A DNA stretch of 64,000 nucleotides. Source: a virus. Below the pieces are notes generated by a model. The model was not told the DNA's origin. It searched no databases and saw only the letters and a list, made by a program, of their open reading frames with translations. The DNA is taken from IMG/VR virus record IMGVR_UViG_3300015078_000001, positions 18,468-82,467 of that record, one strand, 5' to 3'. A program made the translations under genes and the position numbers. Positions 27,086 through 54,019 of the stretch are shown one piece after another. Numbering within the stretch: the first letter of the stretch is position 1; the number at the start of each line of letters is the position of its first letter.

Positions 27086-30000
27086 GCGTGGAACTGAAAA
27101 CTACTGTGGCAGGATTTACTATAACCGCCGATAGTTTTGAGCCGAAAGAAGACGGGTCTGCAAGAGTTTTTACCCTTGAAAAAGTTAATTGGAGAGATGA
27201 GTTAGAGATATGCAATAGACCCGCTACTTTGGCAAAGGCATTACGAGAAATAGCGGATTGGCTAGATACTTTTCCAGCTAGTAAACCTTCTACTATATTC
27301 TAATTCTTACCCAACCTGTAAAGGTTGGTGGAGGAATTATGTGGAGACTTTGGTGGTACCGTTTCAAGTATTTTATGAAACCAAGAGTTCAGTACATAGT
27401 AATTACTAAAACTGATAAACAAGATTGCTATGACGAGATTTTAGTTCGTAAATCTGTACAGCTTAGTATCTGTCCGGAAGAAGATGGTGATTGGTTTGAA
27501 GATCAGTATTTTCTTGCTAATGTAGAAGATATCAAACAAGATGCTCTGACCATTCGAGCTAAGTTGCCTACATTTGAATTAGGTGAGATTCTTATAGTTA
27601 ATCGTAGCGGAAGAGAAATAGCAGGAAAAGGTCGTAAATCTGATAAATGGTACGTAGAATATGAAACATTCTGGACTCTCAGAGCTGCTATAAAAAGAGC
27701 TAAAAACATACAAGGATATTAATCTTACCGAAGTCTTCGGACTTCGTGGAGGAATTATGTCAAAAAGTACAAATAGATACGGGCCTGTTACGAAAGTTCT
27801 TCGTAGTGCATTAGAAGCCAATCCTAAACCTTCTCCTGTATTGGTAGCAGAATGGAAGTTTTTAGATAGAGTTAGTAATTTTTTGTTTGGTAGCAGGTAT
27901 TTTAATCTTTCTAGTAAGATCAGGCTGTCTATCCATGAGATTATTAAAGGAGTTTATACTGATCCCGAACCAAGAATGAAATTAGTAAAAGCTAAAATTC
28001 TTTAATCTTACCTGAGTATCCGTACTCAGCGGAGGATATATGTTTATTGATGTTGACTGGAAAACAGAAGTATTAAAACGTTTGGATGTATTGGCGGATA
28101 AACTTGGAACTACAGGAACTTATCTTTGGCACGTATTGGTGAAGCAGGGAATAGTTATAGGAGCTATAGATTTATTTATAGCATCGGTATTTCTTATACT
28201 AGCTATTCTTGCTTTTAAGGTATCTTATAGAGGGTACTCTAATTTTGCTAATGATTGGGATGATACAGAATTTAAACACGGAAGTCGTTTTGCTGTAGGA
28301 TTTATAGCTGGTATTGTTGCTAGCGGAGTATTTTTGGTACATCTTACCGACGGTCTCCAGGAATTGCTAAATCCTGAATTTTATGCCCTTAACACTATTC
28401 TTGAGAAATTTGGTAAATAATCCTACCCTATACTTTGGTATAGGTGGAGGATATAAATATGAGCTTTAATACCAGTTCACTCGGTTCTGCCAAGACTTTT
28501 CCAGGTGGTAGGAAAGACTTTAAAGACTTTCAGGAAATGAGACATTTGGTAATAGAAGAACAAAATATTGTCGATAGTCTGGATGAACCTGCTGATGAAG
28601 TAGCTGCCGGTATCGTTGTAAACAATCCAGCTATGTTGGCCGATGCTATACAAAATACTCAGGAATTGAATGAAAGTGGGGTATAATGATAAAACTAACT
28701 TTATTCTCAGGTCATCCTATTTGGGTAAATCCTGACCGAGTAGCATCTGTACAAGATGTTATTAAAAATGATTCTCGTACAGGAAATGCCCGTTTAATCA
28801 TGACTTCAAGCGAAGTTATTGAAGTTAAATGCTATGCAGAAGTAGTAGTAAATATGCTTGAAGGATAATCCTGCCGATGTCCATTTACCGGACATCGTGG
28901 AGGACTATTATGTTTCTAGACTGGGAAGATGATTACTATGAATTTCCGTTAGGTGGTTTAGATTATGATTCCGAAGAAGAACTCTGCGGAGATGAAGATT
29001 GTCCGTGGTGCTATCCGAGAGACAGTCAATACATTCCTTTGTATTCGTACAGGGTGGAGGGATTATGTTTGGAATAGTAACCGCAGCAGCAGGAGATAAG
29101 AAACAGCTTATAGAAGGGCTAAAACAAGCTGTTCTTGATTTAGAATCAGAAAGCGGGGATAATTTTATAGGAACTGCGGCAGGATGTGACGTAGAAGCCG
29201 ATATTTTTGGTTGTGGGTTTAAGTATATGTCGGAATTTCTAAAGATTAATAAATTGAGATAAGGAGAAGTATGACAGTTGAAGAATTGATTGATATTTTG
29301 CTTGATATGCCCCCTGATTTAGAAGTTATCTATCCTTTTGATGGTACTGTAATTGTAGTTTCTGACGTAGATGAAGGAACAGATCACGTAATGGTTTCAT
29401 AACTTACGGAAGGTTTCGGCCTTCCCGGAGGAATTATGACTGAAAAACCTTTGAATTCACCAGGGCCATTGGGCCACCACTATGGGCCTCTACATCCTAG
29501 ATTATATTCACCTAGTATTCCGGATAAGAATAACGCGTATACAGAGAGATTACAGCCTTTGGAAGAGGGAGAAAAGATTGAATTTCCCTGTAACGCTAAT
29601 ATAATTATCGGTGATATGTCTATGAATGTTTTAGATGTAATGTTGTATAATGGCGGGGTAACTATATTAAACAATGATAAGCAAAAATACGTTCAAACAG
29701 CTAGTATTTGCGTAGCTAAAGAAGCTGTTCCTTTGCTTATTGAGACTCTGCAACGGGCTTTGATTAGTTTTAAACAGTAAATCTTGCTCATGTCCATTTA
29801 CCGGACATGACGGAGGACGTATGTCTAAGAGTAGAAACCATCGGTTAGTAGTTGGACAACTAGGATCAGGATGGGCTGCTATCGAATTAGCTGATTATGA
29901 AGATATGGAATGGGGTTCAGATGTAGCCCAAACGGGTATTGGAAGATACGCAACTAAAGAGGAAGCTATCGAAGAAGCAAAAGGTTGGTCGGAATCTGAT

Positions 30001-32269
30001 GAACTTCCTTTAATATTAGAAGGTATGGGAGGTTAGTATGTGGCTACTTTGCTGGCTATTTCATTTTGGCCATAATGATAGATATCTCAGACCGTACTGT
30101 TCTATAGCTACCTGTATCAGGTGCGGCAGAGAAAAGAATAAGCCGATAAGTTGGGAGGAATAGTGGCTTACGTTAGGTTTGGAAAGAGAAGTAATGTGTA
30201 TCTCTATGGCGATGTAAATGGTATGTTTTGCTGTTGTGGTTGTCAGTTACTTTGTGGTAGTTATCCACACCGGCGAGATAAATTGAAGTATCGTCAGGAA
30301 GATAGTGTTTGGCTTCCTGACAGATCAGCGGCTATTTTGCATCTTCGTCATCACCGTTTATATGGTCATGCTTTTCCTAAATATGCTGAAAAAAGACTTA
30401 TAGAAGAGCTTAAAGAAAGTGGCGAAAAACTTACTGGTAAAAAGATACCTTTTGCCAAATATTATAAAGAAAAGAAGTCTAATTTAGCTAGATTTTTAAA
30501 ACTCCTTAAAAGTAAGGAAAACCGCTAATGGAAGAGAAAGAAACAAGCCTATAAAGTGGGAGGAATAATGGAAAGTATGAAATCTATGTACAATGACTAC
30601 CTTGCTACGGGACAGGAATACGACGAACTAGACGATAGAATTAGCGATTTTATAAGATCGGTTTACGAAGAATGTAAACATAATAATATCAGTTTTCGAG
30701 ATATGTCCCATTTTATTGATATTATAAACAGAAATATAGAATCTGAATTCGTACTACTACGGGCAAGCGACATGTATAGAGAGGCACATCCGTCATGTCG
30801 GAAAAAGATATAAATCATACTATTCGTTACTATATTCAGGTATTTAAACGTAGTATAAGAGATGACGTATCTCCTCACTTCGGAGAATGGTGGAATTCGC
30901 TTTCTGATGCGATGAATGCTATAATGAGAGGGTTTCTCTCATTATTTGCTCTTATCTTCACGTTGTTAGCTGATATGTGTAATAGATGGAAGAGTAAGTG
31001 TTATAGAAAAGAAGCTGTTAGGTTAATACCAGGTAGTTGTGCCATACCACATGTAGAAGTTCCAAAGCTTGTATTGGTAGAAAAGAAAAAAGATATAAAC
31101 AATAAATTCTCGTTTTAATCCTGCTTGAATGTCCGTTTTCTGGACATTCGATGGAGGGCTTATGAAGAAATTGTGGAACATATTCCTTCATGTATTTGCC
31201 TGGGGGTGTGTGCTAGGCCCGCTTATTTGGTGTATAATAGATAATCAAAAGCATCCTGCGGAATATAATCCTTGTCAGGTGGAGAATAAATAATGTTTAT
31301 TATTAAATATAGTTATATGTTCGGAACTGCACTATATACAGAGTATTTTAAATCGAAATTCACAGCCAACGAAGCTTTTAATATTAAAGCAAAGTTACAT
31401 CATCAAGGATATAGATTTGTAGATATTATACCTGCATAATCCTGCCTAGTCCCTTTTCCGGACTAGCGGAGGATTTATGTCAATATCTTTGGATGAAATT
31501 CACGTATCAGATAGTATACAACGTAAAACAAGCCTAGTTACTTTAGAACAAAACATAGATACGTCTATTAGAGAAGCAATACGTAGAATAGAAAGAACTT
31601 CTATAGTTTTAGTAGATTATAAGCTTAATGATGCAGAGTTAGAAGATTTGAGACGTAAGTATACTGGAATTCAAATACAACAAAGTAAAGCTCTTTCAGG
31701 TATCGGGTATAAATTAGCATTTCTATGGAACTTGCCCACGTATTAGTACGTGGCGGAGGATATATGAATATTAGTGCAGAACAATACCAGGTACTCAGGG
31801 ATGCAGAAGAAGAGGATATGTATACAACATATGTAGAAGAATCTACTGTACACATTCTTACCTTTGGCAGTAAGCCTGTAGGGGTTTATTCTACTCCTGA
31901 ATTAGCTTTGGATGCCCGAGACAGATTCATAGAAACTGTGGACAAGCATCACGATAAAACCTGGATTGATATTATGTTTGACGTAGTACCAATGCAATTG
32001 GACATGCCTGTAGATATCACTAGAATCAGGCCAAACTAATGAATATTATAAAAATTAAGAGAATATCCGATCTTAGACAAAAACATCCTGGTATAGAAAA
32101 TATGTATCTATCTCTACAACGAGCCCCTATATGGGAAAATATACCGGGAATTCTTAAACTGGCGGAACAGTACATTCAAAATTTTAAAATGTGTCCCGAT
32201 CTTAGTTCTTTATTGCGTAGAAAATGTTCTTTTACTGATAAAGAAAGGGGTTTAATATTAGAGATATGA
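27082..32269 (+). CDS. Array of about 20 small hypothetical genes separated by junction hairpins
   Basis: ORF track; most have GGAGG RBS; 28040-28420 has two TM segments. Confidence 0.6.
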
Positions 32270-32730
32270 TTCATATAGGTTTTACGGGAAGTTCTTCTGT
32301 TATTACTCCTGTACAGGAAAAGATGTTAGAAAGAGAGATGACAGAATTTATCCTAGAAGATGTCTTTCTACACCACGGTGATTGCGTAATCGGAGATGCT
32401 ATAGCGGATAAAATAGGGCGGAAATTGGGATTTGATATAATAATCCATCCGCCTGTTAATCCTAGAAAGCGGGCATTCTGTAAGGGCAGAAATACGACTA
32501 TATTGCCTGAAAAAGATTATCTTGTACGTGATGTGGATATAGTCGTAGCTAGCTCTGTATTAATTGCCTGTCCTGAAACGAAATACGAAGTTATTCGATC
32601 AGGAACCTGGTATACGTATAGACAAGCTAAGAAAAGACACCTTCCTATTATCATAATAGAACCTGATGGTACGGTTTCTCATATAGATTTTAACGATATA
32701 TTTCGGAAACTGCACGATATTACTGTTTAA
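32266..32730 (+). CDS. SLOG-superfamily (DprA/YspA-like) nucleotide-binding protein
   Basis: IGFTGS, HHGDCVIGD and RSGTWYTYRQAKK motifs. Confidence 0.7.
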   Translation: MIHIGFTGSSSVITPVQEKMLEREMTEFILEDVFLHHGDCVIGDAIADKIGRKLGFDIIIHPPVNPRKRAFCKGRNTTILPEKDYLVRDVDIVVASSVLIACPETKYEVIRSGTWYTYRQAKKRHLPIIIIEPDGTVSHIDFNDIFRKLHDITV

Positions 32731-33262
32731 TCCTGCTCATGTCCGAAAAATGGACATGATGGAGGAAGTATGCATATTTTCCATAAATGGAAGTTCTGGA
32801 ATAGTCAAACAGGGAAAACGTACTCATCGCTTAGTACAATACCTGTAGATCATTGGACTCAGGTAATGTATAAGTGTTTTTGTGGTAAAAGAAAAGTAGT
32901 GCGATACGATGGAATCTGGGAAGATAAGGATTTTCAATGAGCATAGAAACTGAAGGTGCTGCACGATATTATAGACGTAAGATAGATCAAGCCTGGGAAA
33001 TGGCAGGACTTGCAAGGCAAGATGGGGATAAAAAAGATGAAGAAAGATGGATAAAAGAAGCACTTGAGTTTCAAAGGCTTCTTGGAGAAGGCTAATGGCC
33101 TACGGAAAACGACTATTAACCGCTCAGTTAAAAGAGCTTATGAAGAGTGATAAAGCTTCTATAGCTCAGAAGATAGCGATAGCAAAACTAATCGCTGAAA
33201 TCAATAACTATAACAAATCTAAACAGTCGAGTATTAAAGGTCTCGGCAGAAAATGAGGAAGT

Positions 33263-35366
33263 ATGAGTTTTAATGTGAAGTTGTTTGATAAAGTAGTAAA
33301 GCACGTAGTAGAAGTTCCTGACCGACTTGCTATGGGCGTTCCTGTAGAAAAAATTAATGAAGATGGTTGTGTAGTCGATTATACAATAGGTAAAACTGTA
33401 GAAGTTCGTCCTCCTTGTGGAACAGCAGGATGTTTTGGAGGATGGACTGTTCTTCTTGGAGAACCGGGAAGAATGAGAGATAAAGTTAATAAGTGGTCTG
33501 CTAAAGGATGGATGTCCGTTTCGAAGGTTGCGGCTAACTTGCTCGGAATTGAAGAAGGGATTTTAGACGATAAACTCTTTCATGTATATAAATGGCCTGA
33601 GAAATATGGTAAAGCCTGGAAGAAAGCTCGTAAACCTTCTGACCGTGTAGCTATCTTTGCAGAACGTGCTGCCCAATTCAGGGCGTGGGCGTTAGAAGAA
33701 GGCTTGTAGTAGTAAAACCTTGCCGATGTCCGGAAAATGGACATCGTGGAGGGTCTATGGCTTGCGATTTATATGAACATATACCTTATACGTATTTAAG
33801 AGTAGAGTTAGCTGAAATAGATGCGATGAAAGTACAGCACGCCAGAGTATACGGTATCTGTAGAAAATGTCAAAGCAAATATTTGATTGGAAAAATACAT
33901 GTTCCTAAACTTCCTGCGTAGTCCGGAAAATGGACTACTGGAGGAATGTCATGAAACATTTCTATTTGCGCGATAAACATAGAAGGCCCGTTGGCTGTGT
34001 AGTCAGTCAGCGATTCGAAAATAACAAATTAGACGTGGTTATGTTTGCCGTATCCGCACATAATCCCTTAGACCGTTTCAGCAGGAAAGAAGCGTTTGTA
34101 GAAGCAGTACGAAATTTTGAAAAGAACGGTGTTATTCTTCCTACCAGGAAGGGTATTAAGATCGACATCATGAAAACTATTGTAGAGCATCCGGTATTAT
34201 TCCCACAGCGTACAAGAGATGCGGCTAAACTATGGTTGAAAGAGCATTCTAATTCCGCTAAAAATGGCTCTTATGTTGAGTGGCTCGATAAGAACGGAAT
34301 AACGTAGTATGCCTGAACCTATACTTAAAGATCATGGAGACGGGCACTATGCAATTATAGCGGATAATTGTATAATTCGTCTTCCTGCTGACGGGTCTAT
34401 TCAAATAGACCCTATGATAGATGGCGCAGTAGATATCAGTCTATACGATTGTTGTGTATCTATTACTCAGCGTAATTCTGAACTAGAACAATGGCCGTAT
34501 ATGAGAATCATAACAGAAGAGGAAAAAGATGCCTAAACCATCCTTAAAAGAGCCGTTCAGGTCTTTGGAATGTGCTATAATTGAAACTCTTATAGCAGGT
34601 CATAAAGAGTGGCGTCCCGATCTTTCTTACCCTGAAAGTCATTCAGATATGCAGGCAGCGGTAAGAGGATTACTTCGTATGTTTGACGTAAAACGCAGAC
34701 CGATTGCGTTAGAATCAAAAGACCTGATAGATATGGAGGATTAGTGAAAAAAGTATTGTATTGTGCAATGGAATATGGTGAATTTGAAGATTTAGTAAAG
34801 AAAGAATATGGCCAAGACTACGAGTTTGTGCCTGATATTGAATGTGGAAATGATTCCGATCATTCTTATAGTATAGAAAAAGAAGAATTAGATAGTTGGG
34901 ATGCTAAGTCGATAGAAGAGTTTAAGTCAACCGGAAAATATAGTTTTATGGCTAGACGATTACTTCAGGATTTGGTCAATAATGATAAACTTCCTGAAGG
35001 TGATTTTCTTATAACTGTGTCGTGGTAGCTTCGGGGGTATCTCAGGATACCTACGGGGGCTCAACTCTCGTTGGAAGAAATTCCGTAAAACATTTTAAAT
35101 TGGAGAACATAATTATGTCGAGTATCACTACTGTAAAGACCACTAAGACCGTCTCGAAGCCTTCTTTCACCTTTTCCGGATTTTCTGTCGGCCAGGCTTT
35201 CTTGCGTCCCGATACCGGAAACGTGTATCTGAAGACCGATTCGAATACTGCGGTTAAGATTGGTCAGGTTGGAAATAATGAGTTTAAGCAGCGTACCCGT
35301 TCGGGTAGCTATTTCGACAACCAGGCTGTTGTTCCTGTCGATGCTACTCTGACGATTGCGGTCTAA
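33263..35366 (+). CDS. Cluster of small hypothetical genes
   Basis: ORF track (33263-33709 with CGTAGCFGGW; 33951-34307; 34309-34536; 34529-34744; 34744-35028; C-terminal part of 35022-35366). Confidence 0.55.
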
Positions 35367-35400
35367 TCCTACCGAAGGGGAAACCCTTCGCGGAGGACGC

Positions 35401-38400
35401 ATGAATGACAAGTTTTTAGGTTCATATGATACTATAACTAATCCAGCAAAGTTGGATTTAGATTCGATAGAGCAATCATTAAAATTAATAATGAATGCTC
35501 CGAATGCTGATTCACTACAAAACTGGACTCAGTCTAAACTTATAAAAATACCCGATGATCCCTGGATCAGCTCTAATAGTGTAAAAAAACAAGAATCTGA
35601 TGTGCCTAGTACTATTCTTGATTTAGTGCCTGGATCAGTCCCGGAAGATTGGCATCATCATATCAATCTTTGTGATAGAGTTGGCGGACTTAATTTTTTA
35701 GGGGGTGGAATTCCTGTACAAGGTGGGTGGATTTATAAAAATACCGTTGTACATGAATCCGCCATAATTGGGTCTGATTGCGCTGTATACGATAACGCTG
35801 TAATAGGTGTAAATGTTCAGATATTTAATAATTGTAAAATATACGGCAATGCTAAGATTTTAAAAGGTATAATTTACAATAAAGTAAAAATATATGGCGA
35901 TGTAGTGATCGATAACAGCAGTATGATGAGTGTTAACGCACCGTATATACACCATAACGTAGAAATTTTCGGGAATGTAAGTATTTTTGGAGATTGTTAC
36001 GTCAGAGACGACAGTAAAGTTTATGAAAATGTCGTTATCAGACAAGATGTCAAAATTATTTCTTCAAAAGTATGTGGAAACGTCACTCTTTGTGATAATT
36101 CATACGTAAGCCGAAGCGATGTCTCAGGTACGGTAGTATTATTTAAAAATGCTTGTATAGTAGACTGTACTTTTATGGGTAAAGATTTTATATGTACAGA
36201 AGGTGTTATATATAGCCAGGAACAGGATGAAAAATACAGGTTAAAACCAATTTTATATAGAACTCAAAAGGCTAAAGGTCTTAAAGTTTTAATGAATTTT
36301 AATTTGTTAGATTCTTCTACTAGTTCTATTTTTGATATAAATACAGTTGAGCCTTGCGTACTATGTAAGAAGTTTGTACGTCCGTGTCCGGTTACTCCCC
36401 GACACGGTTTTGTCGATTCAAGGGTTGTTAAAACGATAGAAGAAGCGACAAAACTAATCGAAGAAACTAAACTTGCCGATCCAGAAGCGGAAATTATAGC
36501 TATGATTGCTTATGATCCGCCTTATTCCGGTGTATGGACACAGGGTAAAATTACTATCGGGCCTGGTAATGACGGGGCTACTTCAGGAAAAGATACCATA
36601 ACTATCCCTATTTCAGGAAGTATTACATATCCTGAAAAAATGGCTGTTATGTGTAAATATGCCGGGGTTACAGAATCTCCTTATGTGGAAATTTTATGGC
36701 TATCAACCTCTACTTATCACGGGGGTAATTATAATAACATATTTGCTCCAATATATGTTCAGTTAAGAGATGGCCCTAAACTTCCAGTTACTGTTGATTT
36801 TATACCTGAAGAATTTACAGTATCTTCTGTTGTTTTAGCAGAAGGAAGTCTTCTTGAATGGGAAGAAAAAGTAAAGACGTTTACACCCGGAACAGTTGTA
36901 TACCATCCCGGAGGCAGTCTTTCCAGCCATTATTCCGTACACTGTGTTTTGAATAACATCCCCGTTCTTATTAGTAAGCAGCCTAAAATCGAGGATAAGA
37001 TAAGGCCATGTCAGAATCAAAATTTTATTATGGATTCTGAAAAAATCAGGCAAGGGTTTGTATACTCCCTTACTTACGATATATCATATATGTCAGCTAC
37101 GTATATGATGCTCGTAGGGTGCCATTCTATATACGATTGGCGGGGAAAAGAAGATTTCCTGCTTGGATTTAGTTTAGGATGTGCGTTTCGGCTGACAGTA
37201 ATAGCCGGAGTAGCGGAATATCGTCACTACCACCATATTAAATCCATAGACGGTGAAAGAAGTACCGTTTATGATAATTTATGGGAATATACCGCGAAGT
37301 TTAGTACCCGCCATATGTTTTTGGAAGCATTAAAAGCCTTTAAAAAAGGTCCAAAACCAGGTTCTGGAGGCATCGGCGGGCCTAAATGGTATGATTATGG
37401 TATTCATGCTGTTGAAATCATGAACTATTTAATTCAGAATGATATTTCTAAATCATTTGAAGTACTGAATACTCTGATTAATGCTGTTCATAACGGTGGA
37501 TGGGGGTTTAATAAATTTGCCAATCAGTCTGATCTGGATGATGCAGCGGCCTCCCCTTCTATAGTTATGATGAAAGTAGCTCCGATTTTATATGAAATTA
37601 AGAAGCATGTCCGGAAAATGGACACGGTTGAATTTCAAAATCTGAGCAAATTCTTCGTAAATCGTAGAAAATGGGAACTTGATATGAGTAAGAGTATAAC
37701 TCAGGTCAATACTGATATCTGCGGATGCGAGGAACATGAGTGTCTTGTATGCTATCCTGAAGGCTGTAAGTGTAAGAGTAAAACATGTCACGATTGTGGT
37801 ATTTGTGGTAAGTGCTGTACTTGTAATAAATGTTTTTGCTTAAAATGTAAGCCTGAAGGTTGTAAATGTAAAAATAAATCGTGTCATGATTGTGACAACT
37901 GTGCGAAATGCTGCGGGTGTCAGAAACACGATTGTATTAAATGCTATAAATATGGTTGTGGTTGTAAAAGTAAAAAATGCCATGATTGTAAGCTTCCCGA
38001 TTGTATATACTGTACTAAAAAGAGTAAGATAACAGAAGTTCAGGCCAGAATACTTGGTAAGTTTATTCTTATTCATTATAAACGACAGGGTGCATCTGGA
38101 TATGAAACCATAAAGAAAGAAATACCGATCAATAATCTGGATAAAATAAAGTTGTGGATTAGTGAAAATAGTACTTCTTCTTCGTGGACAGATAGTACTA
38201 CGGTTATGTATGCTCCCGGTGTATGGAAATATACTACTTGGATGCTCGGGCCGTTTGCTGTCGAGTTACCTTTTCCTTTGGGTAGTTGCGGGTGTGATGG
38301 CCATACCTGTGTTATATGTTACCCTAAAGGCAATTGTCCGTGTAAAAATAAGTATTGCCACGATTGTTATAATCACTGTTGTCTGTATTGTTTTCCTGAC

Positions 38401-38601
38401 GGTTGTGCATGTAACTGTAAAGATTGCCATAAAATACCGTGTATATGCGACGTTATTGACGATGATTACTGCGGATGTCACGATCATGACTGTTCTAAGT
38501 GTTTTCCGGACGGATGTGACTGTTCCTGTGATAGTTGTCATGATGACGGATGTGATAATTGTATAACTCCGGACGAGCCGGAAGAAGAGGTAAGTTACTA
38601 A
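35401..38601 (+). CDS. Giant multidomain protein: left-handed beta-helix, PEP-utilizer-like phosphohistidine domain and Cys-rich repeats
   Basis: Hexapeptide repeats (AIIGSD, AVIGVN, VQIFNN); GTVVYHPGGSLSSHYSVH...NNIPVL; repeated CGCxxHxCxxCxPxGCxC units. Confidence 0.65.
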   Translation: MNDKFLGSYDTITNPAKLDLDSIEQSLKLIMNAPNADSLQNWTQSKLIKIPDDPWISSNSVKKQESDVPSTILDLVPGSVPEDWHHHINLCDRVGGLNFLGGGIPVQGGWIYKNTVVHESAIIGSDCAVYDNAVIGVNVQIFNNCKIYGNAKILKGIIYNKVKIYGDVVIDNSSMMSVNAPYIHHNVEIFGNVSIFGDCYVRDDSKVYENVVIRQDVKIISSKVCGNVTLCDNSYVSRSDVSGTVVLFKNACIVDCTFMGKDFICTEGVIYSQEQDEKYRLKPILYRTQKAKGLKVLMNFNLLDSSTSSIFDINTVEPCVLCKKFVRPCPVTPRHGFVDSRVVKTIEEATKLIEETKLADPEAEIIAMIAYDPPYSGVWTQGKITIGPGNDGATSGKDTITIPISGSITYPEKMAVMCKYAGVTESPYVEILWLSTSTYHGGNYNNIFAPIYVQLRDGPKLPVTVDFIPEEFTVSSVVLAEGSLLEWEEKVKTFTPGTVVYHPGGSLSSHYSVHCVLNNIPVLISKQPKIEDKIRPCQNQNFIMDSEKIRQGFVYSLTYDISYMSATYMMLVGCHSIYDWRGKEDFLLGFSLGCAFRLTVIAGVAEYRHYHHIKSIDGERSTVYDNLWEYTAKFSTRHMFLEALKAFKKGPKPGSGGIGGPKWYDYGIHAVEIMNYLIQNDISKSFEVLNTLINAVHNGGWGFNKFANQSDLDDAAASPSIVMMKVAPILYEIKKHVRKMDTVEFQNLSKFFVNRRKWELDMSKSITQVNTDICGCEEHECLVCYPEGCKCKSKTCHDCGICGKCCTCNKCFCLKCKPEGCKCKNKSCHDCDNCAKCCGCQKHDCIKCYKYGCGCKSKKCHDCKLPDCIYCTKKSKITEVQARILGKFILIHYKRQGASGYETIKKEIPINNLDKIKLWISENSTSSSWTDSTTVMYAPGVWKYTTWMLGPFAVELPFPLGSCGCDGHTCVICYPKGNCPCKNKYCHDCYNHCCLYCFPDGCACNCKDCHKIPCICDVIDDDYCGCHDHDCSKCFPDGCDCSCDSCHDDGCDNCITPDEPEEEVSY

Positions 38602-39896: not shown

Positions 39897-39929
39897 CTTA
39901 CCCGAATCTTTGGATTCGGCGGAGGTTGT

Positions 39930-42560
39930 ATGAAAATTACACCAGACTTAGCAGAAGTAGTTGCTCCAAAACATAGCAGAACATCATGTTCAGATACTGA
40001 CCCTTGTAACGGAAGCTATTCTATTACAGAAGAAACCCTCAAAGGAGTGTTAATATCTAGAGAATTTATACAAGCTCCTAGATGTTTACGATGTTTTTTC
40101 TTATCTAATATAGATGTTTGGGACTGTAGATTAAGTCTATCGTGTACCTTATCCTTAGTACAACCTAGTTTTAAAATACAACAGGTAATTGAATAGTTAG
40201 TATTGCTCATGTCCATTTTCCGGACATGATGGAATATAGGAGACTAAAATGAGTTGGAAGTCACAAGATCGTACTCGGCTATATATCTACCCTAACTGTG
40301 AATGTTTGTTTTATCCTGGACGTACTCATTGCTATAATTGTGTACAGGATAACTATGAAGTAGATGAAGCAAGACAGAGAAATGAGTCAGAACCTAAGAA
40401 ACCTATCTGGTGGTGGAGATGGGCAAAAACAAGGCTTAATCAGCAAGACTTAAACTTTCTATCGGGGTTTATTCCTACAGTAGGGTGGAAGCCTTTTAAG
40501 GGAAAGAGAAAATAATGACTAAATCTAAAGAAGCCATCCTAATGTTAGCTTTATTTTGTCCGGAAAATGGACTAAATATGACACCAACAGAGATAGCATT
40601 ATTTGTCATAAACAGGTTAATTGACACAGAAGAAAAGGTATTGGATTTAGAGGAGGAACTTAGTAATGTCGGATGCTTCTAACGAAGTTAGTACGGGCAA
40701 TATAATTGAATTATGGCTATGTATTACGAGTGGCGGCTGTTTTGGGGCCGCTGTACATAATTTTTGGGCTGGAGCGTGTTTTTCTATGGTAACTTTATTA
40801 ATTTGGTCGCAATCAGAAGATTGGAGAACGGCATACAGGAGTAAAAAGTAATGGCGGATAACGGTACTATAAATCCTATATTCAAATACCTGCAAGGCCG
40901 AACTACCACGTTATTGTGGTTTTTCTCTGTTACAGGTACTGTGTTACAATATATACATAGACTAGACCCCGTTTATATAGGGTTAGCAGGGTTGATTCTT
41001 ACTGCCGCTATGGGGCACAGTATTAAAGAAGATTATAAAGAGTTTAAACTGTCTCCTAACGGCAACGGAAATGGCCATAAAGATGATGACAAGAACGCAG
41101 ATAAAGACGATAATTCTGCTTAAACGTCCAGAAAATGGACGTTTTACGGAGGATTTATGAGAGTATACAGGCATGAAATAAAGATTTTACCTTGGGATAA
41201 TATAACAGAACTAGAATCTCAAATGAACACAATGTCTAATGAAGATGACGGATGTAAGTGGAGAGCGGAGAATCATAAATTGAGCGGTACAGATAGCGGC
41301 GGATGGACTATGTATCGAAGAAGTTGGGAAGAAAATCCTCCGTTACTAGAAGCAAAAGTTAGAGCTTCGGCGGTATTTAATGCACTAAATAGTGCTTCTT
41401 TTCGTACTTTATGTGGTGATAATGAAGAACTTACTCATAAAATAAGTAAATATATCACAGATATTATTAAAGAAGCCGTACAGAAGGAAAACTAATGGAA
41501 ATAGAAAAGGTGTATTTAAATATAAAATTAACTTTAGAAGAAGCGGTTATACTTAAAAGTTTAATAGATAGTGTTTCAGGTACGGGAAGTACAAGAAACA
41601 CAGTTAATCACATTTCAGATACATTAGAAATAGCAGGAATACCTGTAAATTTTACACTTTCTGAAACTATATTTAGGGGTGAATTAATCGCTATTGATCC
41701 GAAGATGGGGAATAATGACCGAACAACACGTAAAATTTATTAGAACTAATGAAAATTGGTATGGTACTTTCGACCCTTTTGACGAGTCAGAGAACATAGA
41801 ATACTGTAATCCAAGACCTTTCCCGTGTTTTAAGTTAACTGTATCTAAGTTTCCCGGTAAAGATACATGGTATATATCTGCTACAGGTACAGATGACGGA
41901 GTATATCAAAAAGAATATAACACTCGACTTGAAGCTTTAACCGATTTTGAATATATAGAAGATTTTACTACTAGAGATTATTTCTCAGAAATGGGGTTTG
42001 AATACTGGTAATGAACTCATTTATATGTCCTCAATGTCATAACACTATAACTGAAACCGATTTCCACAAAATGAGCTGTAGTTATGCTGATTTGTCCAAG
42101 CGACAGATAGATGTAGAAGAGGGAAACAGAATTCGCAGACGTTTTGGTAGTTACGAAGAATAGGAGAATTATGGACAATATTATTAATTTAGTTATTGGC
42201 GATTGGTCAGATGATGGTCATGGAAAGACCCATACTGTAACGGTAAAATCCAACCTTCTTAAAGAAAACATTGATAGGGCGTATTTGGAAGGTGTTAAAA
42301 AAATAGGTGTAGATATATCTGAATATTGTGAAGATTACGAAGATACTTTAGTTCCGATGGAAGCTTTAAAGAAACTAGAAACAGCCGGATTTGATTTATA
42401 CACGTTAGACGGATATGGTGAAGATGAAGAATTTGGCATTTGGTATGAAGATTTTGCTAAAATCTGGATGTTTATAGCTAAAACAGGAAATCCTGATTTG
42501 ATCCTCGTACCCGCTGATCCTAATAGTATAAATATAGGCGGATACGGCCTATTTACTTAA
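39930..42560 (+). CDS. Cluster of small hypothetical genes
   Basis: ORF track; several preceded by family A hairpins. Confidence 0.55.
40851..41123 (+). CDS. Small two-TM membrane protein (holin-like)
   Basis: Two hydrophobic segments and a charged C-terminal tail. Confidence 0.4.
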   Translation: MADNGTINPIFKYLQGRTTTLLWFFSVTGTVLQYIHRLDPVYIGLAGLILTAAMGHSIKEDYKEFKLSPNGNGNGHKDDDKNADKDDNSA

Positions 42561-42967: not shown

Positions 42968-42972
42968 TCAAT

Positions 42973-43082: not shown

Positions 43083-43340
43083 ATGCATATAAAACGATTC
43101 TTTTGCTTTGAATGCAGACCTTATAGATGGTTCCGTCGCAGAAGAGATTTAAAAAATCATATGATAGATGGTGCTCACCGAAGAGGTCAATATATGATGT
43201 TTCTTACTGAAAGAGCAATAATGAGAAAACATACTTCTGCGGCTAAATGGCTTAGAGTAGAGAACAAACGATCCGATCATTGGTTTGAGAATAGCGAAGT
43301 TTTAGAATTTAGGTGGTGGGGTAGAAGGAAAAAGAAATGA
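43083..43340 (+). CDS. Basic hypothetical protein
   Basis: 85-aa ORF with RBS immediately after a dyad site. Confidence 0.5.
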   Translation: MHIKRFFCFECRPYRWFRRRRDLKNHMIDGAHRRGQYMMFLTERAIMRKHTSAAKWLRVENKRSDHWFENSEVLEFRWWGRRKKK

Positions 43341-44347
43341 TAAACATCTCGATTGACTTTGAAAGCGCGTCATCTGTTGATCTATCCGTATGCGGCTTAG
43401 ATAGGTATGTTACAGATAAATCAACTAAAATTTTGATGATGGCGTATGCTTTTGAGGATGAATCTGTACAGATATGGGAACCGCACAAAGAGAAATTTCC
43501 TGACCGAGTATTGAAAGCTTTCTATGATTCTGAAGTAACTATATTTGGGTGGAATGTAAGCTTTGAACGGCAGATACTTGCATATTGTTTAGGTCATGAA
43601 CTTCCGTATGTTAAATTCAAAGATTCTATGGTCATGGCCCGGTATATGGCTTTACCAGGGTCGTTAGATGAATGCGGAAGTGTGTTAGGAATTGATACTA
43701 GCCTTCGGAAGATGCAGAATTCTGATAGATTGAAAGATATGTTTTGCCTACCAGCTAAAGAAGGTGGAGAAGAAACGCTTTTCGGTATATCTGAAGATGT
43801 GTTTCGTACACATGAAACTAATCCTGTTGAATGGCAGGATTTTGTCTCATACTGCAAACAAGACGTAGTTGCAGAACGTGCTATTAAGAACAGATTAAAG
43901 AACTTCCCTCTCCCTGAACATGAATGGGAGGCCTGGTACTTAGATCAGGAGATAAATGAGCGGGGAATAGCCGTAGATATGGAATTAGTTGAAGGTGGTA
44001 GCTATATTGCGGGTATAGATAAGCAAAGACAATTAGATAAAATACAATCTATTACTAAACTTGATAATCCTAACAGCCGAGATAAAATTCTTCAATGGTT
44101 AAGAGACCGTGGCTACCCTTTTCATGAATTAGGAAAAGCTTTCGTAGCTAGAGCTTTGGCTGAGAAAAATGAAATGACTGACGAAGCTAAAGATATTCTT
44201 TTATTAAGACAAAAATCAGCTAAAACTTCATCACAAAAACTTATCAATATAGCTAATCAAGTTAGTAATGACGGACGTTTACGCTTTCAATATAGTTTTA
44301 TGGGTGCGAGCCGAACCGGAAGATTTTCATCAGGAAGTGGAGAATGA
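43337..44347 (+). CDS. polA: DNA polymerase family A, N-terminal part (3'-5' exonuclease plus thumb)
   Basis: ISIDFES (ExoI), WNVSFER (ExoII), YCKQDVVAE (ExoIII); ends GASRTGRFSSGSGE. Confidence 0.88.
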   Translation: MINISIDFESASSVDLSVCGLDRYVTDKSTKILMMAYAFEDESVQIWEPHKEKFPDRVLKAFYDSEVTIFGWNVSFERQILAYCLGHELPYVKFKDSMVMARYMALPGSLDECGSVLGIDTSLRKMQNSDRLKDMFCLPAKEGGEETLFGISEDVFRTHETNPVEWQDFVSYCKQDVVAERAIKNRLKNFPLPEHEWEAWYLDQEINERGIAVDMELVEGGSYIAGIDKQRQLDKIQSITKLDNPNSRDKILQWLRDRGYPFHELGKAFVARALAEKNEMTDEAKDILLLRQKSAKTSSQKLINIANQVSNDGRLRFQYSFMGASRTGRFSSGSGE

Positions 44348-44532
44348 TACTTTACGCAGCAACTTATTACGAAACTGATGGGTATACCTATGGTGTAGAA
44401 ACAGTTCTAGCAATTTGTGATAGCAAAAGTAAAGCAGATGAAGTGTGTTTAAAAGATAACGAAGTTTATCCCGCAAGAGATTTAACCTATTATGAGGTTA
44501 AAGAATTCGAGATTAACCAACTGTGGGAATAA
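44344..44532 (+). CDS. Small ORF inserted within the polymerase gene
   Basis: 62 aa; ATGA overlap with the upstream stop and overlap with the downstream GTG start. Confidence 0.65.
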   Translation: MILYAATYYETDGYTYGVETVLAICDSKSKADEVCLKDNEVYPARDLTYYEVKEFEINQLWE

Positions 44533-45566
44533 ATGTTCAAAATTTAGTTCGACCAGGAAGTGAAGTATCTAAAAACTTAGAAGAAGCTATCTCTCTTGTG
44601 AAGGCAAAAGACCTTGAAGGTATTCAGAAAAGATTTAAAACTGAGCCGTTAGATTTAGTGGGAAGTCTTATCCGATCAGTTTTTGTCGCACCTAAAGGTA
44701 AAAAGCTAGTTATATGCGACTTATCGGCGGTTGAGAATAGAGTTTTAGCTTATATTTGCGACGCACCTTCTATCTTAAAAGTATTTCAAGATAAACTTGA
44801 TCCGTATGTATATTTTGCTGTTGATCTTTATAACGAACCATACGAAGTTTTGTTAAAAGATAAACAGAAAAGACAAAATGCTAAACCAGCAGTTTTGGGC
44901 GCAGGATACGGATTGTCTGGTGGAGAACAGATTACTTCCGATAATGGCGATATCGTTTTCACCGGACTCATGCAATATGGGCGTTCACTAGGAGTGGAGA
45001 TATCTAGGGAACTAGCTCACAAATCTGTAGAAGTATTTAGAGAGAAACATCATGAAGTGGTTAGTTGCTGGTATGCTTTAGAAAAAGCAGCTACTAAGTG
45101 CATTCTTACTAGACAGCCACAAATAGTCAATATAGTTAAATTTAGTATGGTAGAAGATGTTATGTGCATAACTCTTCCTAGTGGCAGAGATTTACACTAC
45201 GTTTCTCCTAGAATAATAGACGATGTTTGGCCTAATGGTAGAAAGAAAAAATCCATAGAGATTTTCGGTATGGATTTAGTTACTCATGTTTGGAACAGAA
45301 CTAGAACTTATGGTGCCAAAATTTTGGAAAATATTGACCAAGCTATATCGAGAGATTTGTTAGTAGAATCCATGTTTAATGCCCGAAAAATGGGATTTGA
45401 TATAGTTATGCATTCGCACGATGAGTTGGTAACAGAGGTAGAAAAAGATTCAAAACTAGGGATTGACCAACTACGTTCTTGTATGATACAATCTCCTATA
45501 TGGAGTAACTCTAATTTAATTTTAGACGCCGCTGGATTTGAATCAAAAATTTACAGAAAAGAGTGA
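44523..45566 (+). CDS. polA: DNA polymerase family A, C-terminal part (palm/fingers)
   Basis: INVQNL, motif A ICDLSAVENRVLA, motif B RQNAKPAVLGAGYG, motif C MHSHDELV. Confidence 0.9.
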   Translation: MGINVQNLVRPGSEVSKNLEEAISLVKAKDLEGIQKRFKTEPLDLVGSLIRSVFVAPKGKKLVICDLSAVENRVLAYICDAPSILKVFQDKLDPYVYFAVDLYNEPYEVLLKDKQKRQNAKPAVLGAGYGLSGGEQITSDNGDIVFTGLMQYGRSLGVEISRELAHKSVEVFREKHHEVVSCWYALEKAATKCILTRQPQIVNIVKFSMVEDVMCITLPSGRDLHYVSPRIIDDVWPNGRKKKSIEIFGMDLVTHVWNRTRTYGAKILENIDQAISRDLLVESMFNARKMGFDIVMHSHDELVTEVEKDSKLGIDQLRSCMIQSPIWSNSNLILDAAGFESKIYRKE

Positions 45567-45567
45567 T

Positions 45568-47311
45568 ATGAAACTTAAAAGTTTAATCGGAAAAACCATA
45601 GATAAACTAGAACTTAACACACAATCAGACGAATTTACCATCCATTTCACAGACGGATTGTATATTAAATTCGGAGTAGAAGGAGATTGTTGCTCCCATA
45701 GCTGGATTGAACACTTAACAGCCCCTAATGACGTACATGGTGCGGTAATAACGGATGTATTTGAAGGCGGTAGTGCGGCCTGGGATAACCATGAATGTGT
45801 AGATGGAAAAGATAAATACGGATATGTTACACACGTATGTGGTCATGACTGTCTACAGGTATATAATACTCAGTTTGATACGGATAGAGGGTCGATTATA
45901 TTAGAATATAGAAACGATTCTAATGGCTACTATGGTGGTAATTTAACACTTATTGACACTAATTTGCCTAAAAATGACGAAGATGACTGGAGTTGGAATT
46001 ATATCTCTTACTAATTCTGCCTATGTCCATTTACCGGACATAGAGGAGGAGAAAATGAGAAAAAGCTTAGTATTGTTATTTTGTTTAATACTTGTTATAT
46101 GTGGTTGTAATTCAGTAGGATACAAGCAATTCTATGTAAGGTCACACGGTAATGGGTACAGTGTATCTTGTCATCATTCTGGTGGAGACGTAGATATAAC
46201 TAAATCATTTGTTAGCCCTAAAGAAGCTCAGGATTTGGCTGAAAAATTAAATAAAGAAGTCGGAGATAACTGGGCCGCAAAGGACACGAATTAATATGAG
46301 AAAAGAAGTTCCGATAACAGATACTATAGTAGAAGCTACTTGCGATCTATGCGGCGATATACAAGAGTTTGTGGGTGACGTAGAAAAATGTCCGGGGTGT
46401 AAAAGAGATTTTTGCCGAAAAAATACTTGCTATAAATCCCTGTATCCATTAGACTATGTGTTCTCCTATCCTAACGCACTATGCTCCATATGCTATCCAA
46501 AAATAGATATGTTTATAGACAAAGCCAGGCAACTTCAAAAAGAATTAGACGACAAAATTTCTGCATTAAAAACTAATATAAAACAGGTGCTTAATTATGT
46601 CAAGTGAACCTAATGAACATATAAATAAATACGAGAAAGTAGAATTTGATTGCGGTACTACAGCTACTTTAACTCATATGTCTCCGCAGATGGCCCAACC
46701 TGTAGACCATGATTTCCTTGTAGGTGTAACTATAAATGCAGAACACAGCGGAGGACTTCGTATTCATAACGGCGTTTATACGGGTGAAGTACAAATGCTT
46801 TTTTATTTACGTAATATACCCGCTATTATACATATGCTACAGAGAATTTATAAATCGGGTATGGGTACACATTAATGAGTAAACTCAGCAGATGTACCAG
46901 ATGTGACAGAACTTCAGATGACGTTGAAACTATTCTAGACCCCGACGAGACATTTGAATCTTCTTTATGCTATTTTTGCAGAGTAGATTGGCAGAATTTG
47001 TTCGAAGAGTTTATAAACAATGAAATTTAGTTTGCTCGGAACCAAAGCCTCGTTATCTGGGAGAGGACTCACCCTTTGGTTTCGTGGAGGCGAAAATGAG
47101 TAAAGAACTAGAGTTACTACAAGAACTTGAAAAGCATCTACGAAATACTATACTAGAGGGCGAATTTGTACTTTTAAACACCGAAATTTTTATGTATGAT
47201 CCACCCAATTATGAAGAGTTTCGCGTAGAATCTTGTTATATCGGCGGATTAGAAAGTATCTTAGAGGAATTAGATGAAATACGACAGCAAAAAGAACCGC
47301 TGGAAAACTGA
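45568..47311 (+). CDS. Cluster of small hypothetical genes
   Basis: 45568-46014 (GDCCSHSW...NDSNGYYGG), 46055-46294 (lipoprotein-like), 46296-46607, 46597-46875. Confidence 0.55.
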
Positions 47312-51183: not shown

Positions 51184-51188
51184 GAATT

Positions 51189-51725: not shown

Positions 51726-51727
51726 AT

Positions 51728-51816: not shown

Positions 51817-51824
51817 GTTTTTAC

Positions 51825-51911
51825 TTGGGGTTGGTGGAAAGGCAGACACACTAGTTTTAGGAACTAGCGGGAGAAATCCTATTAGGAGTTCAAATCTCCT
51901 ACCCCAAACCA
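51825..51911 (+). tRNA. tRNA-Leu(UAG)
   Basis: Loop TTTAGGA; long variable arm; A73, CCA. Confidence 0.9.
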
Positions 51912-52546
51912 ATTTTTAATGGAGAAGTAAATGATCTTTAATGAAGATACTCTTACTAAATATAACAAAGCCATCAATGAATATAGAAATAGAATAAGGA
52001 GAAATGATATGGGCGGGTGTATAGATTTAGAGGATATACCGTTTGGGTATATATCCGATGAGAAACTTCCCTGCGGGTGTCGTAAACCGTGGGCAGTACC
52101 TAACATACAATGTGTACTAAATAAACCGTTAATGATGGTGATTCCTCCGGATGGAGCTCATCTTTCATGCCCTGCTCATGCCGAAGGGCATCATGTATTT
52201 GGTAGTCAGGTGACTTATTAAATGAGTAAAGCCCGTAGACGTACACACATTCGATTTACAAAACAAGAAACCATAGTACACAGATTTGATCTATACCCAC
52301 AGGTTAACAAGTATTCTAGTAGTGTTGGCCCAGTCTTATCAGGCCTCCAGCATTCAGCAAAACATGAAAAAGAAGAAGAATATAAAGCTTTTAGAAAGTG
52401 TAATGAGATAGTATACTCCTTCTATAAAGAATCTTTGATGTCTCAGAAACCTCCACAAGAGTCAGCCTTTGACGAACAACTTCGTCATAATGACAGTGTA
52501 CATGCTTTGAAAGAAATGTATAAACGTTTTACAAGGGAGTCATTAG

Positions 52547-53689
52547 GTGTCTGAAAAACCATTAAGTCATCAGGTAAAAGTAGTAAGAGTTCCTGCGCCG
52601 AGAATCCATTCAAATGCAGATAGCTTGGAAATCCTGGACACGCTTGGATTCCAAACTGTAGTAAGAAAGGGAGAGTACAAAGAAGGCGATCTAGCATTTT
52701 TTGTTTGCCCCGATTCTATAATTCCGCCGGATAAATATCAGTTCTCTTTTCTTTGGGATGGAAAAACTGCTCCAGGAGAAGATATTCCTGTAAAATATCG
52801 AAGAATAAGGGCCGTAAGATTGCGTTCTGTTTGGTCTGAAGGCTTACTAATGCCGGTTAAGTCTTTTCCAGAATTGAAAGATTGTAAAGTAAATGACAAT
52901 GTATCAGATATATTAAATATCCAACACTACCAACCGCCCGATCCCGAAGATATGAAAGGTCAGAACGAACGTGGGCCTAAACGTCATCTTCCTAAGACAT
53001 TTAAAGGCTGGTGCTTCTATATATACTGGAATATAATTGGTAGACTAGGGTTTTCTACTCCTTTACAAGGTAGTAATGAGAAAGGGCCGAAGAACGGAAA
53101 ACCGTATTACGATATTGACAATGGAAAGCACTTCCCGGATGTATTTCAAGAAGGGGAACAGGTAGTAATTACAGAGAAGCTCCACGGTTGTCAGGGAAAA
53201 TATGTATACCAGGATGGTAAAATGTACGCAGGTTCTCGTAACTATTGGAAGAGTAAGAATAGTACCTGTGTATGGAGAAAGACTTTAGCACAAAATAGCT
53301 GGATAGAAGATTGGTGTAAAAAGAACGAAGGACTTACGCTTTATGGAGAAATTGTGCCTGTACAGGGTCAAAACTTCATGTACGGTTGTAAGCCCGGAGA
53401 ATTAAAGTTCTTTGTGTTTGATATACTGAAATTTAATCATACGTGGGTTAGTAAGAAAGATACCGAACCTAATGATTTCTTCGGCTTACTGAATCATTGG
53501 GTTCCGATATTATACATAGGTGAATATGTTAAAGAAGAAGTGAAGAAACTAGTAGAGGGTAAAAGTACTCTCGATAAAAACACCGTTCGAGAAGGTATTG
53601 TTATTACGAGTTACGAAGAAGAACATGTACGGGGTTTGGGAAGAAAGATTTTGAAGCTAATTTCGAACGACTATTTATCTAAAAATTAA
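52547..53689 (+). CDS. RNA ligase (DRB0094/Rnl2-like family)
   Basis: HSNADSLE...VVRKGEYKEGDL OB-like N-terminus; TEKLHG, YGEIV, FVFDI and REGIVI. Confidence 0.88.
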   Translation: MSEKPLSHQVKVVRVPAPRIHSNADSLEILDTLGFQTVVRKGEYKEGDLAFFVCPDSIIPPDKYQFSFLWDGKTAPGEDIPVKYRRIRAVRLRSVWSEGLLMPVKSFPELKDCKVNDNVSDILNIQHYQPPDPEDMKGQNERGPKRHLPKTFKGWCFYIYWNIIGRLGFSTPLQGSNEKGPKNGKPYYDIDNGKHFPDVFQEGEQVVITEKLHGCQGKYVYQDGKMYAGSRNYWKSKNSTCVWRKTLAQNSWIEDWCKKNEGLTLYGEIVPVQGQNFMYGCKPGELKFFVFDILKFNHTWVSKKDTEPNDFFGLLNHWVPILYIGEYVKEEVKKLVEGKSTLDKNTVREGIVITSYEEEHVRGLGRKILKLISNDYLSKN

Positions 53690-54019
53690 TCTTGCCGATG
53701 TCCGGAAAATGGACATCGTGGAGGATTATGAAAACCAATGGAACTTGAATATTTAGTATTGACAAAAGACGAAGCCTGTGATATTCTGAACGGTGATAGC
53801 GAATACAAATCCATTTTGGAAGAATTTATAGGCAATGGCAGATGGTCTCTACATTATAGACTGGTATTCGAAAAAGATGGTATGTTTTACGAGACTAGTT
53901 ATAGCCGTGGTGCAACAGAAAGTCAGGACGAACAGCCGTTTGAATACCAAGATGAAGTAAAATGTAAGAGAGTTTACCCGTACCAGAAAACAACAACTGA
54001 TTACAAATAAGGAGAACAT

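Follow-up and report, generated by a model that had tools for sequence, protein, structure and literature searches.

A recurrent hairpin that pairs the Shine-Dalgarno sequence of the next gene in the small-gene array of an uncultured soil phage

The DNA considered here is a 64,000-nt stretch, hereafter the window, which covers positions 18468-82467 of a single 109,031-bp virus record in IMG/VR (completeness 72%); the element in question is a hairpin, termed family A, that recurs at gene junctions on its + strand. The phage under study is designated G000 and the coordinates of its hairpin copies are window positions, while L137, L140, L141, G001, G002, G004, L138 and L139 are relatives. The only sequencing run listed with this DNA is a soil metagenome (DNA), and G000 is an uncultured soil phage of metagenomic origin. 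A megablast search against public phage records returned no close relative, and the terminase of the nearest phage isolate detected by tblastn is merely 27% identical. The window encodes a terminase on the - strand, eight transfer RNA (tRNA) genes, a split family A DNA polymerase, a clamp-loader-like ATPase, an RNA ligase, ERF and a PD-(D/E)XK nuclease. Beyond about 19 kb there follows a long + strand series of mainly small open reading frames (ORFs) without database matches, and the small proteins of this array gave no match in Pfam; these small genes are probably early genes. The guanine-cytosine (GC) content is 39.5% and the GC skew is strongly positive along the array. A GC content of 38-39%, together with the GGAGGA sites, suggests a low-GC Gram-positive bacterium as the probable host. 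The array includes rnc (26414-27085, + strand), a complete gene for an RNase III of 223 aa with a catalytic domain, a double-stranded RNA-binding domain (dsRBD) and the motifs ExxExxGD and ADxxEA, in agreement with the original prediction, which was made from these letters and had assigned such an enzyme to the phage. One small ORF separates rnc from the first family A hairpin.

Family A has a fixed layout in which the stop codon of the upstream gene is followed by TCYT-R-C, a variable stem-loop, N-GG-AGGA and the start of the next gene. The AGGA belongs to the Shine-Dalgarno (SD) sequence of that gene and TCYT is its complement, with ACYT, TTCT, CCTT and TATT occurring as variants of this anti-SD element. 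The upper stem is 7-11 bp long and different in sequence in each copy; its loop is either a tetraloop or the 7-nt centre of a dyad, GTCC-N7-GGAC. On the 3' side, each copy has one extra base, GG, AGGA and then 3-12 nt before the ATG. A strict regular expression found 12 copies in the window, and a looser one combined with a pairing check found 14 in the 109-kb genome, all of them on the + strand at window positions 27305-53690. Folding of all junctions added copies at 29403, 33722, 39897 and 41114, for a total of 18, and a covariance model built from the 18 recovered all of them and a 19th at 31724-31766. The three approaches agree on 19 copies, all on the + strand between 27.3 and 53.7 kb. 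The pattern TCYTRC-N19-28-GGAGGA had 11 matches against 0.21 expected, a number reached in none of 100 shuffles. Tetraloops are present in seven of the first 18 copies (GTAA, TTCG twice, TCCG, TTTG twice, GAAA), the 19th copy has TTAG, and the GTCC-N7-GGAC dyad tops 11 copies. The original prediction had counted 18 copies, all of which stand, but the true number is 19. Its tally of seven tetraloop and eleven dyad copies is exact among those 18, and two features it described for the core, R opposite G and one extra 3' base before GG, were found in every copy. Its description of the module as genome-wide does not hold: the copies are limited to a 26-kb part of the + strand array, with none on the - strand and none in three related genomes.

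The individual copies vary around this layout. The first (27301-27341) reads TAA-T, TCTTAC, a 7-bp stem with a GTAA loop, a T bulge, GGAGGA and ATG. The TAA stop directly adjoins TCTTAC at 27720-27759, which has a UUCG tetraloop and the top model score of 55 bits, and at 28003-28042, which has a TCCG loop; it adjoins TCCTAC at 28418-28461, a copy with a TTTG loop whose L137 ortholog has an entirely different upper stem with pairing kept. In the L137 ortholog of the dyad-type copy at 28866-28912, U-A replaces a C-G pair and the loop is inverted. At 29400-29438 (UUCG loop), the TAA stop overlaps the first anti-SD base (A-CTTAC). Further dyad-type copies follow at 29778-29823, at 31116-31164, with an upper stem of 11 bp and GGAGGG as its SD, and at 31437-31479, where L137 has a UUCG tetraloop stem in its place. 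The copy outside the earlier 18 (31724-31766; 32.6 bits) has ACTTGC and a 7-bp stem, and the upstream stop is in its TTAG loop. The dyad is in the opposite orientation at 32728-32772, whereas the copy at 33707-33759 is a CCTTGC variant with tandem stops 12 nt upstream and an outer stem that extends to the start codon. The TAG stop lies within the upper stem at 33906-33953. The GAAA-loop copy at 35364-35403 precedes the gene for a 1066-aa protein and has an upper stem identical to that in L137, and the copy at 39894-39932 (TAG-CTTAC, TTTG loop) follows a phosphatase gene. The copy at 40194-40251 (40201) has TATT/AATA, such that the SD is gone from the helix and a separate AGGAG lies downstream, just as the original prediction had reported for this site; L137 has the same variant. 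TTCTGC variants with dyads are found at 41109-41159, with the upstream stop within the stem, and at 46012-46057, where L137 has the same stems and an inverted loop. The last copy (53687-53740) is of the dyad type and follows the RNA ligase gene.

The pattern of substitutions was examined for evidence that the RNA helix is under selection. In the alignment of 18 copies, 99.1% of the cells are paired over 12 base pairs, and 10 of these 12 pairs have changed on both sides. None of 500 shuffles matched this covariation, and slid registers pair in 41-53% of cells. When 52 copies from the four phages known to carry family A (G000, L137, L140 and L141) were pooled, 98.6% of the cells were paired. At the mismatch, the 5' base is always a purine (52 of 52) and never C or U, which would pair. 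It is followed by C in 51 of 52, forming the C-G pair, and the G-G on the opposite side is invariant (52 of 52). The one-base 3' bulge is likewise present in all 52 and can be C, T or A, never G. Comparison of 13 orthologous junctions of G000 and L137 identified 31 differing base pairs, of which 29 still pair and 15 have changed on both sides. These changes include a wholly replaced upper stem, a paired deletion of one base pair, inverted dyad loops and the replacement of a dyad stem by a UUCG stem. Since stems and loops were swapped between orthologs with pairing kept, the sequence of the upper stem is free and the content and orientation of its loop irrelevant. The proposal that the upper stem differs from copy to copy yet always pairs is supported by this covariation, both within the genome and between phages. 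Wobble pairs are frequent and are all U-G when the + strand is read, and A-C pairs are absent, which argues that it is the messenger RNA (mRNA) strand that is selected to fold. As judged from these sequence comparisons, family A is a conserved, selected RNA structure on the coding strand. In Rfam, only tRNAs reached the gathering score, and nothing relevant was found at E values up to 1 across 27.25-35.45 kb.

We analyzed the state of the SD in the free RNA by folding. In the minimum free energy (MFE) fold, at least 4 of the 6 SD bases are paired in 47 of the 50 modelled copies. The mean free energy is -16.6 kcal/mol for the whole hairpin and -6.1 kcal/mol for the G-U-rich lower helix that contains the SD. 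The claim that the hairpin locks the SD of the next gene is thus supported by its predicted occlusion in 47 of 50 copies and by the covariation of the pairs involved. The placement of the upstream stop is similarly regular. Its end coincides with the first anti-SD base in 23 copies and is offset by +1 in 9 and by -1 in 7, such that 39 of 51 lie within one base, and in 9 more of the 51 the stop is inside the hairpin. The stop directly before the hairpin that had been described is therefore the usual arrangement, but it is not universal. TAA is used in 39 of 51 stops at hairpins versus 91 of 179 genome-wide, and the next base is U.

The effect of a ribosome at this stop was modelled in 50 copies by forcing the RNA to be single-stranded to 5 nt past the stop. 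This reach is the published position of the ribosomal helicase, which reportedly keeps the bases 3' of the A-site codon single-stranded (Takyar, Hickerson and Noller are said to have shown this in 2005). In these folds, the mean number of paired SD bases decreased from 4.7 to 1.5 of 6, and 33 of the 50 copies had at most one paired. Because the stop adjoins the UCYU strand and the ribosome keeps the bases 3' of it single-stranded, a terminating ribosome should melt exactly that strand. Family A buries the SD of the next gene and, in the folding models, is sited such that a ribosome at the upstream stop would free it.

We next consider how these hairpins are arranged within the array. On the + strand between 19.5 and 64 kb, a further 46 junctions either overlap or leave no more than 15 nt between the genes, and nearly all gaps of 30-65 nt between 19.7 and 41.2 kb hold an SD-masking hairpin. 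The sole clear gap of this size and range without one is at 30526-30570 (MFE -3.2 kcal/mol, with a free GGGAGGA). The structural genes on the - strand showed no such module. Sites resembling sigma-70 promoters occur in the array at chance level (62 against 62.4 and 67 against 67.1), and the family A hairpins have no U-run terminator on their 3' side; on these grounds the array is probably read as a long polycistronic RNA. A role of the hairpins as terminators was considered and rejected, as there is no U-run and the ATG is 3-12 nt downstream.

A second type of hairpin, family B, occupies 19700-26416, where TAG is followed by TTTYGAC, a stem and GATGGAGG. Its helices are longer than those of family A, at about 21 bp, with the same layout of mismatch, one pair and 3' bulge. 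Family B ends at the RNase III gene in G000, L140 and L141, and B-type junctions precede rnc in L141 and L140. B-like copies (TAATCTTTTGAC ... GAGGAGATTA) were also seen in the distant relatives L138 and L139, and neither rnc nor the dyad was found within the 17.7- and 22.7-kb loci around the large gene in these two. The first gene of the array follows a 270-nt AT-rich gap, and its SD is paired in a dyad-containing hairpin at 19496-19552 (CTCCTGC ... GCAGGAG) with no abutting upstream ORF.

The distribution of family A was explored among relatives of G000. The dyad 15-mer led to a large clade of phages of about 105-110 kb with a GC content of 45-55%. The complete or nearly complete genomes G001, G002 and G004 have structural and replication genes in common with G000 at 30-50% identity; they showed no small-gene array, no family A match and hardly any SD-masking junctions. 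The covariance model (R1) had no match on 100 loci with the dyad 15-mer (865 kb) or on these three whole genomes, and we take family A to be absent from the higher-GC relatives that bear the dyad because the model was negative there. L137, a syntenic 100.8-kb contig from a different sample, was reached through a homolog of the 1066-aa protein (61% identity); its array is 70-85% identical in DNA to that of G000 and has 19 model matches. RNase III homologs led to L140, in which rnc is 59% identical and at least 13 copies of family A are present, and to L141, in which rnc is 76% identical and the copies begin right after it. A covariance model with a search of related genomes had been suggested as a check on the original prediction; L137, L140 and L141 do carry the module. 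A scan of IMG/VR for the module and dyad as a combined pattern gave 12 matches, all due to chance with no dyad and no model match, and a peptide scan of IMG/VR with the RNase III gave none.

We prefer, tentatively and at somewhat less than an even chance, a reading of family A as a device for translational coupling in which the terminating ribosome would open the weak lower stem. In this mechanism the upper part would serve as a stable, sequence-free stem-loop of 7-11 bp, often with a UNCG or GNRA cap, that clamps a weak lower helix in which the UCYU after the upstream stop pairs with the AGGA of the next gene's GGAGGA. The purine-G mismatch and the one-base 3' bulge would keep the lower helix separately meltable and leave one SD guanine unpaired; they may also be read as keeping this helix always weaker than the duplex of the SD with 16S RNA. 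The SD would thus be masked in free mRNA, by about -6 kcal/mol on average, until a ribosome at the abutting stop unwinds UCYU and exposes the SD a few bases away across the still-folded upper stem, upon which the downstream gene may be started by the same or a nearby ribosome. The cassette would chain translation where genes do not overlap, as a counterpart of the ATGA and TAATG overlaps elsewhere in the array, and after any cleavage of the mRNA the upper hairpin would double as a barrier at the 3' end. The overlaps and gaps of at most 15 nt in the same array, which constitute the classical layout for coupling, provide a supporting context.

Several observations weigh against translational coupling. 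Three types of junction keep the geometry by compensating changes though their helix has no usable SD: TATT/AATA at 40194-40251 and in L137 (15164-15222), with the separate SD downstream; CTT/AAG in L140 (8385-8455, 8391), with the actual SD farther downstream; and TTTT/AAAA in L140 (10038-10079, 10043), with no SD evident. Retention of the geometry in these junctions suggests a role for the shape itself, as would be predicted for a factor that recognizes shape but not for pure masking of the SD. The mismatch that is ever a purine and the constant bulge could equally be a feature for recognition by a protein or nuclease. In a few copies the stop is 4-12 nt upstream, probably beyond the reach of a terminating ribosome. 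The adjacency of stop and hairpin could simply reflect genome compaction, and the hairpin before the first gene at 19.5 kb masks an SD where there is no upstream ORF to supply the ribosome.

The family A hairpins may instead be processing sites of the phage RNase III, possibly together with the host enzyme, which we regard as possible though on the unlikely side and which is compatible with coupling. The mismatch and bulge would allow the enzyme a single cut, made on the 3' side immediately before GGAGGA, which would leave a protective hairpin at the 3' end of the upstream cistron and give the downstream one a free SD at its 5' end; with family A beginning after rnc, about 20 downstream genes would be licensed only after RNase III has been made. 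The complete enzyme at 26414-27085, with its acidic catalytic motifs and dsRBD, is consistent with this scheme, as is the fact that all four carriers (G000, L137, L140 and L141) have an rnc of this lineage shortly before their first copy; no RNase III is present in the hairpin-free relatives G001, G002 and G004, whose genomes are complete or nearly so. These four are syntenic relatives, however, and the co-occurrence may represent a single gain; moreover, L138 and L139 have B-like SD-masking hairpins yet no rnc in the loci fetched. The substrate itself can be argued both ways. Internal loops and bulges can limit RNase III to cutting once, with a hairpin remaining at the 3' end, and a bulge-helix-bulge can also let a hairpin bind the enzyme uncut (PMC1540722). 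The purine-G mismatch and 3' bulge, found in 52 of 52 copies, match the internal loops and bulges of RNase III processing sites and are kept in the junctions without an SD, but such an arrangement might equally block cleavage. From TCYT to AGGA, the family A hairpins span 31-42 nt with 12-17 bp, one mismatch and one bulge. Substrates of the Escherichia coli enzyme typically have two helical turns, with a minimum of 34 nt below which reactivity falls strongly (PMC1540722). The tetraloop copies, at 31 nt and about 12 bp plus the mismatch, are below this minimum and the dyad copies have 13-17 bp, though the phage enzyme may differ from that of E. coli; the distance from loop to mismatch also ranges from 8 to 12 bp. 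Precedents are found in the early sites of T7 and in the early mRNA of SP82, which is cut by the Bacillus subtilis RNase III (Panganiban and Whiteley 1983; Mitra and Bechhofer 1994, as cited in PMC4838370). A more elaborate version, which is doubtful, is that the phage RNase III and the hairpins together make up an autonomous operon-decoding system, in which the family A RNAs would stay untranslated until cut at the invariant hinge of mismatch and bulge. It is no less doubtful that such cuts would yield messages led by an SD together with upstream messages capped by a hairpin. If true, a short, non-canonical class of RNase III substrates would constitute a built-in timer for about 20 genes. 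Recognition of shape could also be the task of a phage repressor or activator that binds the purine-G mismatch, the C-G pair and the bulge as an operator and switches the whole gene set together, a reading that we consider improbable. T4 RegA and the MS2 coat protein control translation of their target RNAs in this manner. The irregular core is invariant as such an operator would be (R in 52, C in 51 and G-G in 52 of 52, and a bulge that is never G), its layout of mismatch, one pair and 3' bulge recurs with different sequences in family B and the distant relatives, and the SD-less variants retain it. Yet no candidate protein was found, the small proteins of the array being without Pfam matches; the two guanines (G50 and G51) belong to the SD, so their invariance needs no other cause; and tuning of helix stability can account for the mismatch and bulge.

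Two further alternatives place the function of the module in DNA or in transcription. It is very unlikely that the module is a gene-exchange linker at the DNA level, of the kind represented by PeSL or integron attC sites, with its RNA structure secondary. Some genes unique to G000 or L137 do have hairpins on both sides (27339-27722, 28040-28420 and 33757-33921), and blocks of homology between the two phages end at hairpin edges. The inversion of dyad loops between orthologous sites shows that palindromes rearrange as DNA, and the phage encodes ERF and a PD-(D/E)XK nuclease. On the other hand, hairpins adjoin 18 of the 22 genes in common with L137 and 10 of the 16 that are not, which is no enrichment at variable genes. 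The original proposal of a portable expression junction that lets new genes be slotted in is unsupported by these counts, though such portability might arise as a side effect. The modules are in a single orientation, always 3-12 nt ahead of a start codon and built on its SD, with no promoter and no U-run; the frequent U-G and absent A-C pairs argue that one strand is selected to fold; and PF00589 (tyrosine recombinase) was not matched anywhere in the 109-kb record (72% complete). It is barely probable, finally, that a phage-specific promoter in or at the 5' edge of the hairpin gives rise to transcripts without the masking strand and that only these are translated, as exemplified by the T4 genes e and soc. 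The stop and the following T do give xxTAAT, resembling a -10 element, 6-8 nt before the upper stem, and a weak sigma-like match was found at 55643-55747. But the sequence before TAA shows no conservation and the putative -10 element is variable at position 2; sigma-70-type sites are as frequent as expected by chance, and a T7-type RNA polymerase was looked for and not found. The upper stems have no common motif, and the dyad is present in merely 11 of 19 copies, in both orientations and also inside genes; the covariation of the lower stem, moreover, means that RNAs with both arms matter. What probability remains beyond the five readings named here belongs to ones that were not considered.

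Comparison with known systems suggests by analogy that family A resembles two of them at once, namely masking of the ribosome-binding site (RBS) with ribosome-dependent unmasking of the MS2 type and the intercistronic hairpins of T7 and SP82. As in the coat-replicase regions of MS2 and Q-beta and in bacterial operons, the downstream SD is paired in the free mRNA and its complement is located where upstream ribosomes must melt it. Those cases are single, idiosyncratic and often long-range, whereas family A is a compact local cassette of fixed geometry, with about 19 copies per genome, or about 28 if family B is counted, and it is conserved in several phages. Its likeness to the R0.3-R1.3 sites of T7 early mRNA and to the SP82 sites lies in repeated intercistronic hairpins on a long early polycistronic RNA, with a helix broken by a small loop or bulge just 5' of the next RBS, and a cut would likewise leave a 3' hairpin on the upstream message. 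In contrast to these sites, the helix of family A is 12-17 bp instead of about two turns, the SD is one of its strands and the stop adjoins the other, the enzyme would be that of the phage rather than of the host, and cleavage is putative. Very stable hairpins with UNCG or GNRA caps also occur between genes of T4, where C(UUCG)G hairpins were reportedly described by Tuerk et al. in 1988. The T4 hairpins lack the conserved lower stem of anti-SD and SD, the core of mismatch and bulge and the fixed relation to the stop. The PeSL of T4-type phages combine a sigma-70-like promoter and a terminator and mediate recombination (PMC2839356, PMC4122927). Like family A, they recur as short regulatory cassettes in a hyperplastic region, where they separate small and variable genes that are not essential; unlike them, family A is without promoter or U-run, is predicted to act on translation and shows no enrichment at variable genes. 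In integrons, too, small ORFs are lined up in one direction, and behind each of them is an imperfect palindrome, attC, whose ends are conserved and whose centre varies; one strand also has unpaired bases that are conserved. Family A differs in that no integrase match accompanies it, its ends are TCYTRC and GGAGGA rather than the RYYYAAC/GTTRRRY core, its 3' end is the next SD and it is the coding strand that folds. Family A was tried as a PeSL cassette, an attC site and a T4 promoter-in-hairpin gate and lacks the defining features of all three.

Individual hairpins that mask an SD and intercistronic RNase III sites are already known, and the underlying principles are established. The literature on phage hairpins and coupling that we found deals with single sites, with no description of an anti-SD/SD cassette standardized at some 20-30 junctions with an invariant non-canonical core. 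Here, a phage lineage has standardized one compact cassette and placed it at about 19 junctions in each genome (about 28 when family B is included), its geometry constant while all stem sequences drift. Such a cassette represents a natural standard part for the expression of strings of small genes. It is also a clean system for the study of termination-reinitiation and RBS unmasking across a folded spacer, of whether very short substrates suffice for a phage RNase III, and of the means by which each new gene of a hyperplastic early-gene array stays expressed. Its 52 natural variants are a ready mutational series.

The dyad that tops 11 of the family A stems, and is dispensable there, has a distribution of its own. 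As the 15-bp sequence GTCC-ATTTWCC-GGAC it has 46 copies in the 109-kb genome compared with 0-3 in shuffles (for example at 1516, 5625, 18956, 37609 and 51247), in both orientations and both inside and between genes. Distant relatives without family A have 21, 56 and 60 copies of GTCC-N7-GGAC, in which the N7 is partly different. In its sequence features the dyad looks like a DNA site for binding of a protein. Its asymmetric 7-nt centre is inverted between G000 and L137 with the flanking stems the same (46025-46039 versus 20405-20419 and 28879-28893 versus 4646-4660), which by its sequence means that the hairpin loop was flipped as DNA. The dyad of L140 is TTCC-N7-GGAA instead of GTCC-N7-GGAC (for example at 2103-2145, 6434-6475 and 8825-8866), the outer pair having changed on both sides throughout the locus.

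Other genes in the window were noted as well. The family A DNA polymerase (43337-45566) is interrupted by a 62-aa ORF at 44344-44532; the polymerase is a single gene of 639 aa in L139 and two abutting genes (336 and 354 aa) in L137, where no separate 62-aa ORF was called. The 1066-aa protein, which contains hexapeptide repeats, and an overlapping PTP-like phosphatase (35401-39896) form a conserved pair found on many metagenomic contigs of about 60-100 kb, with 126 homologs at E ≤ 0.001 that are mostly nameless in all sources. A 314-aa protein encoded at 55256-56200 is 65% identical to a protein of G004 and has a weak match to sigma-70 region 2 (14.9 bits, E = 0.002), and it may be a sigma-like factor of the phage.

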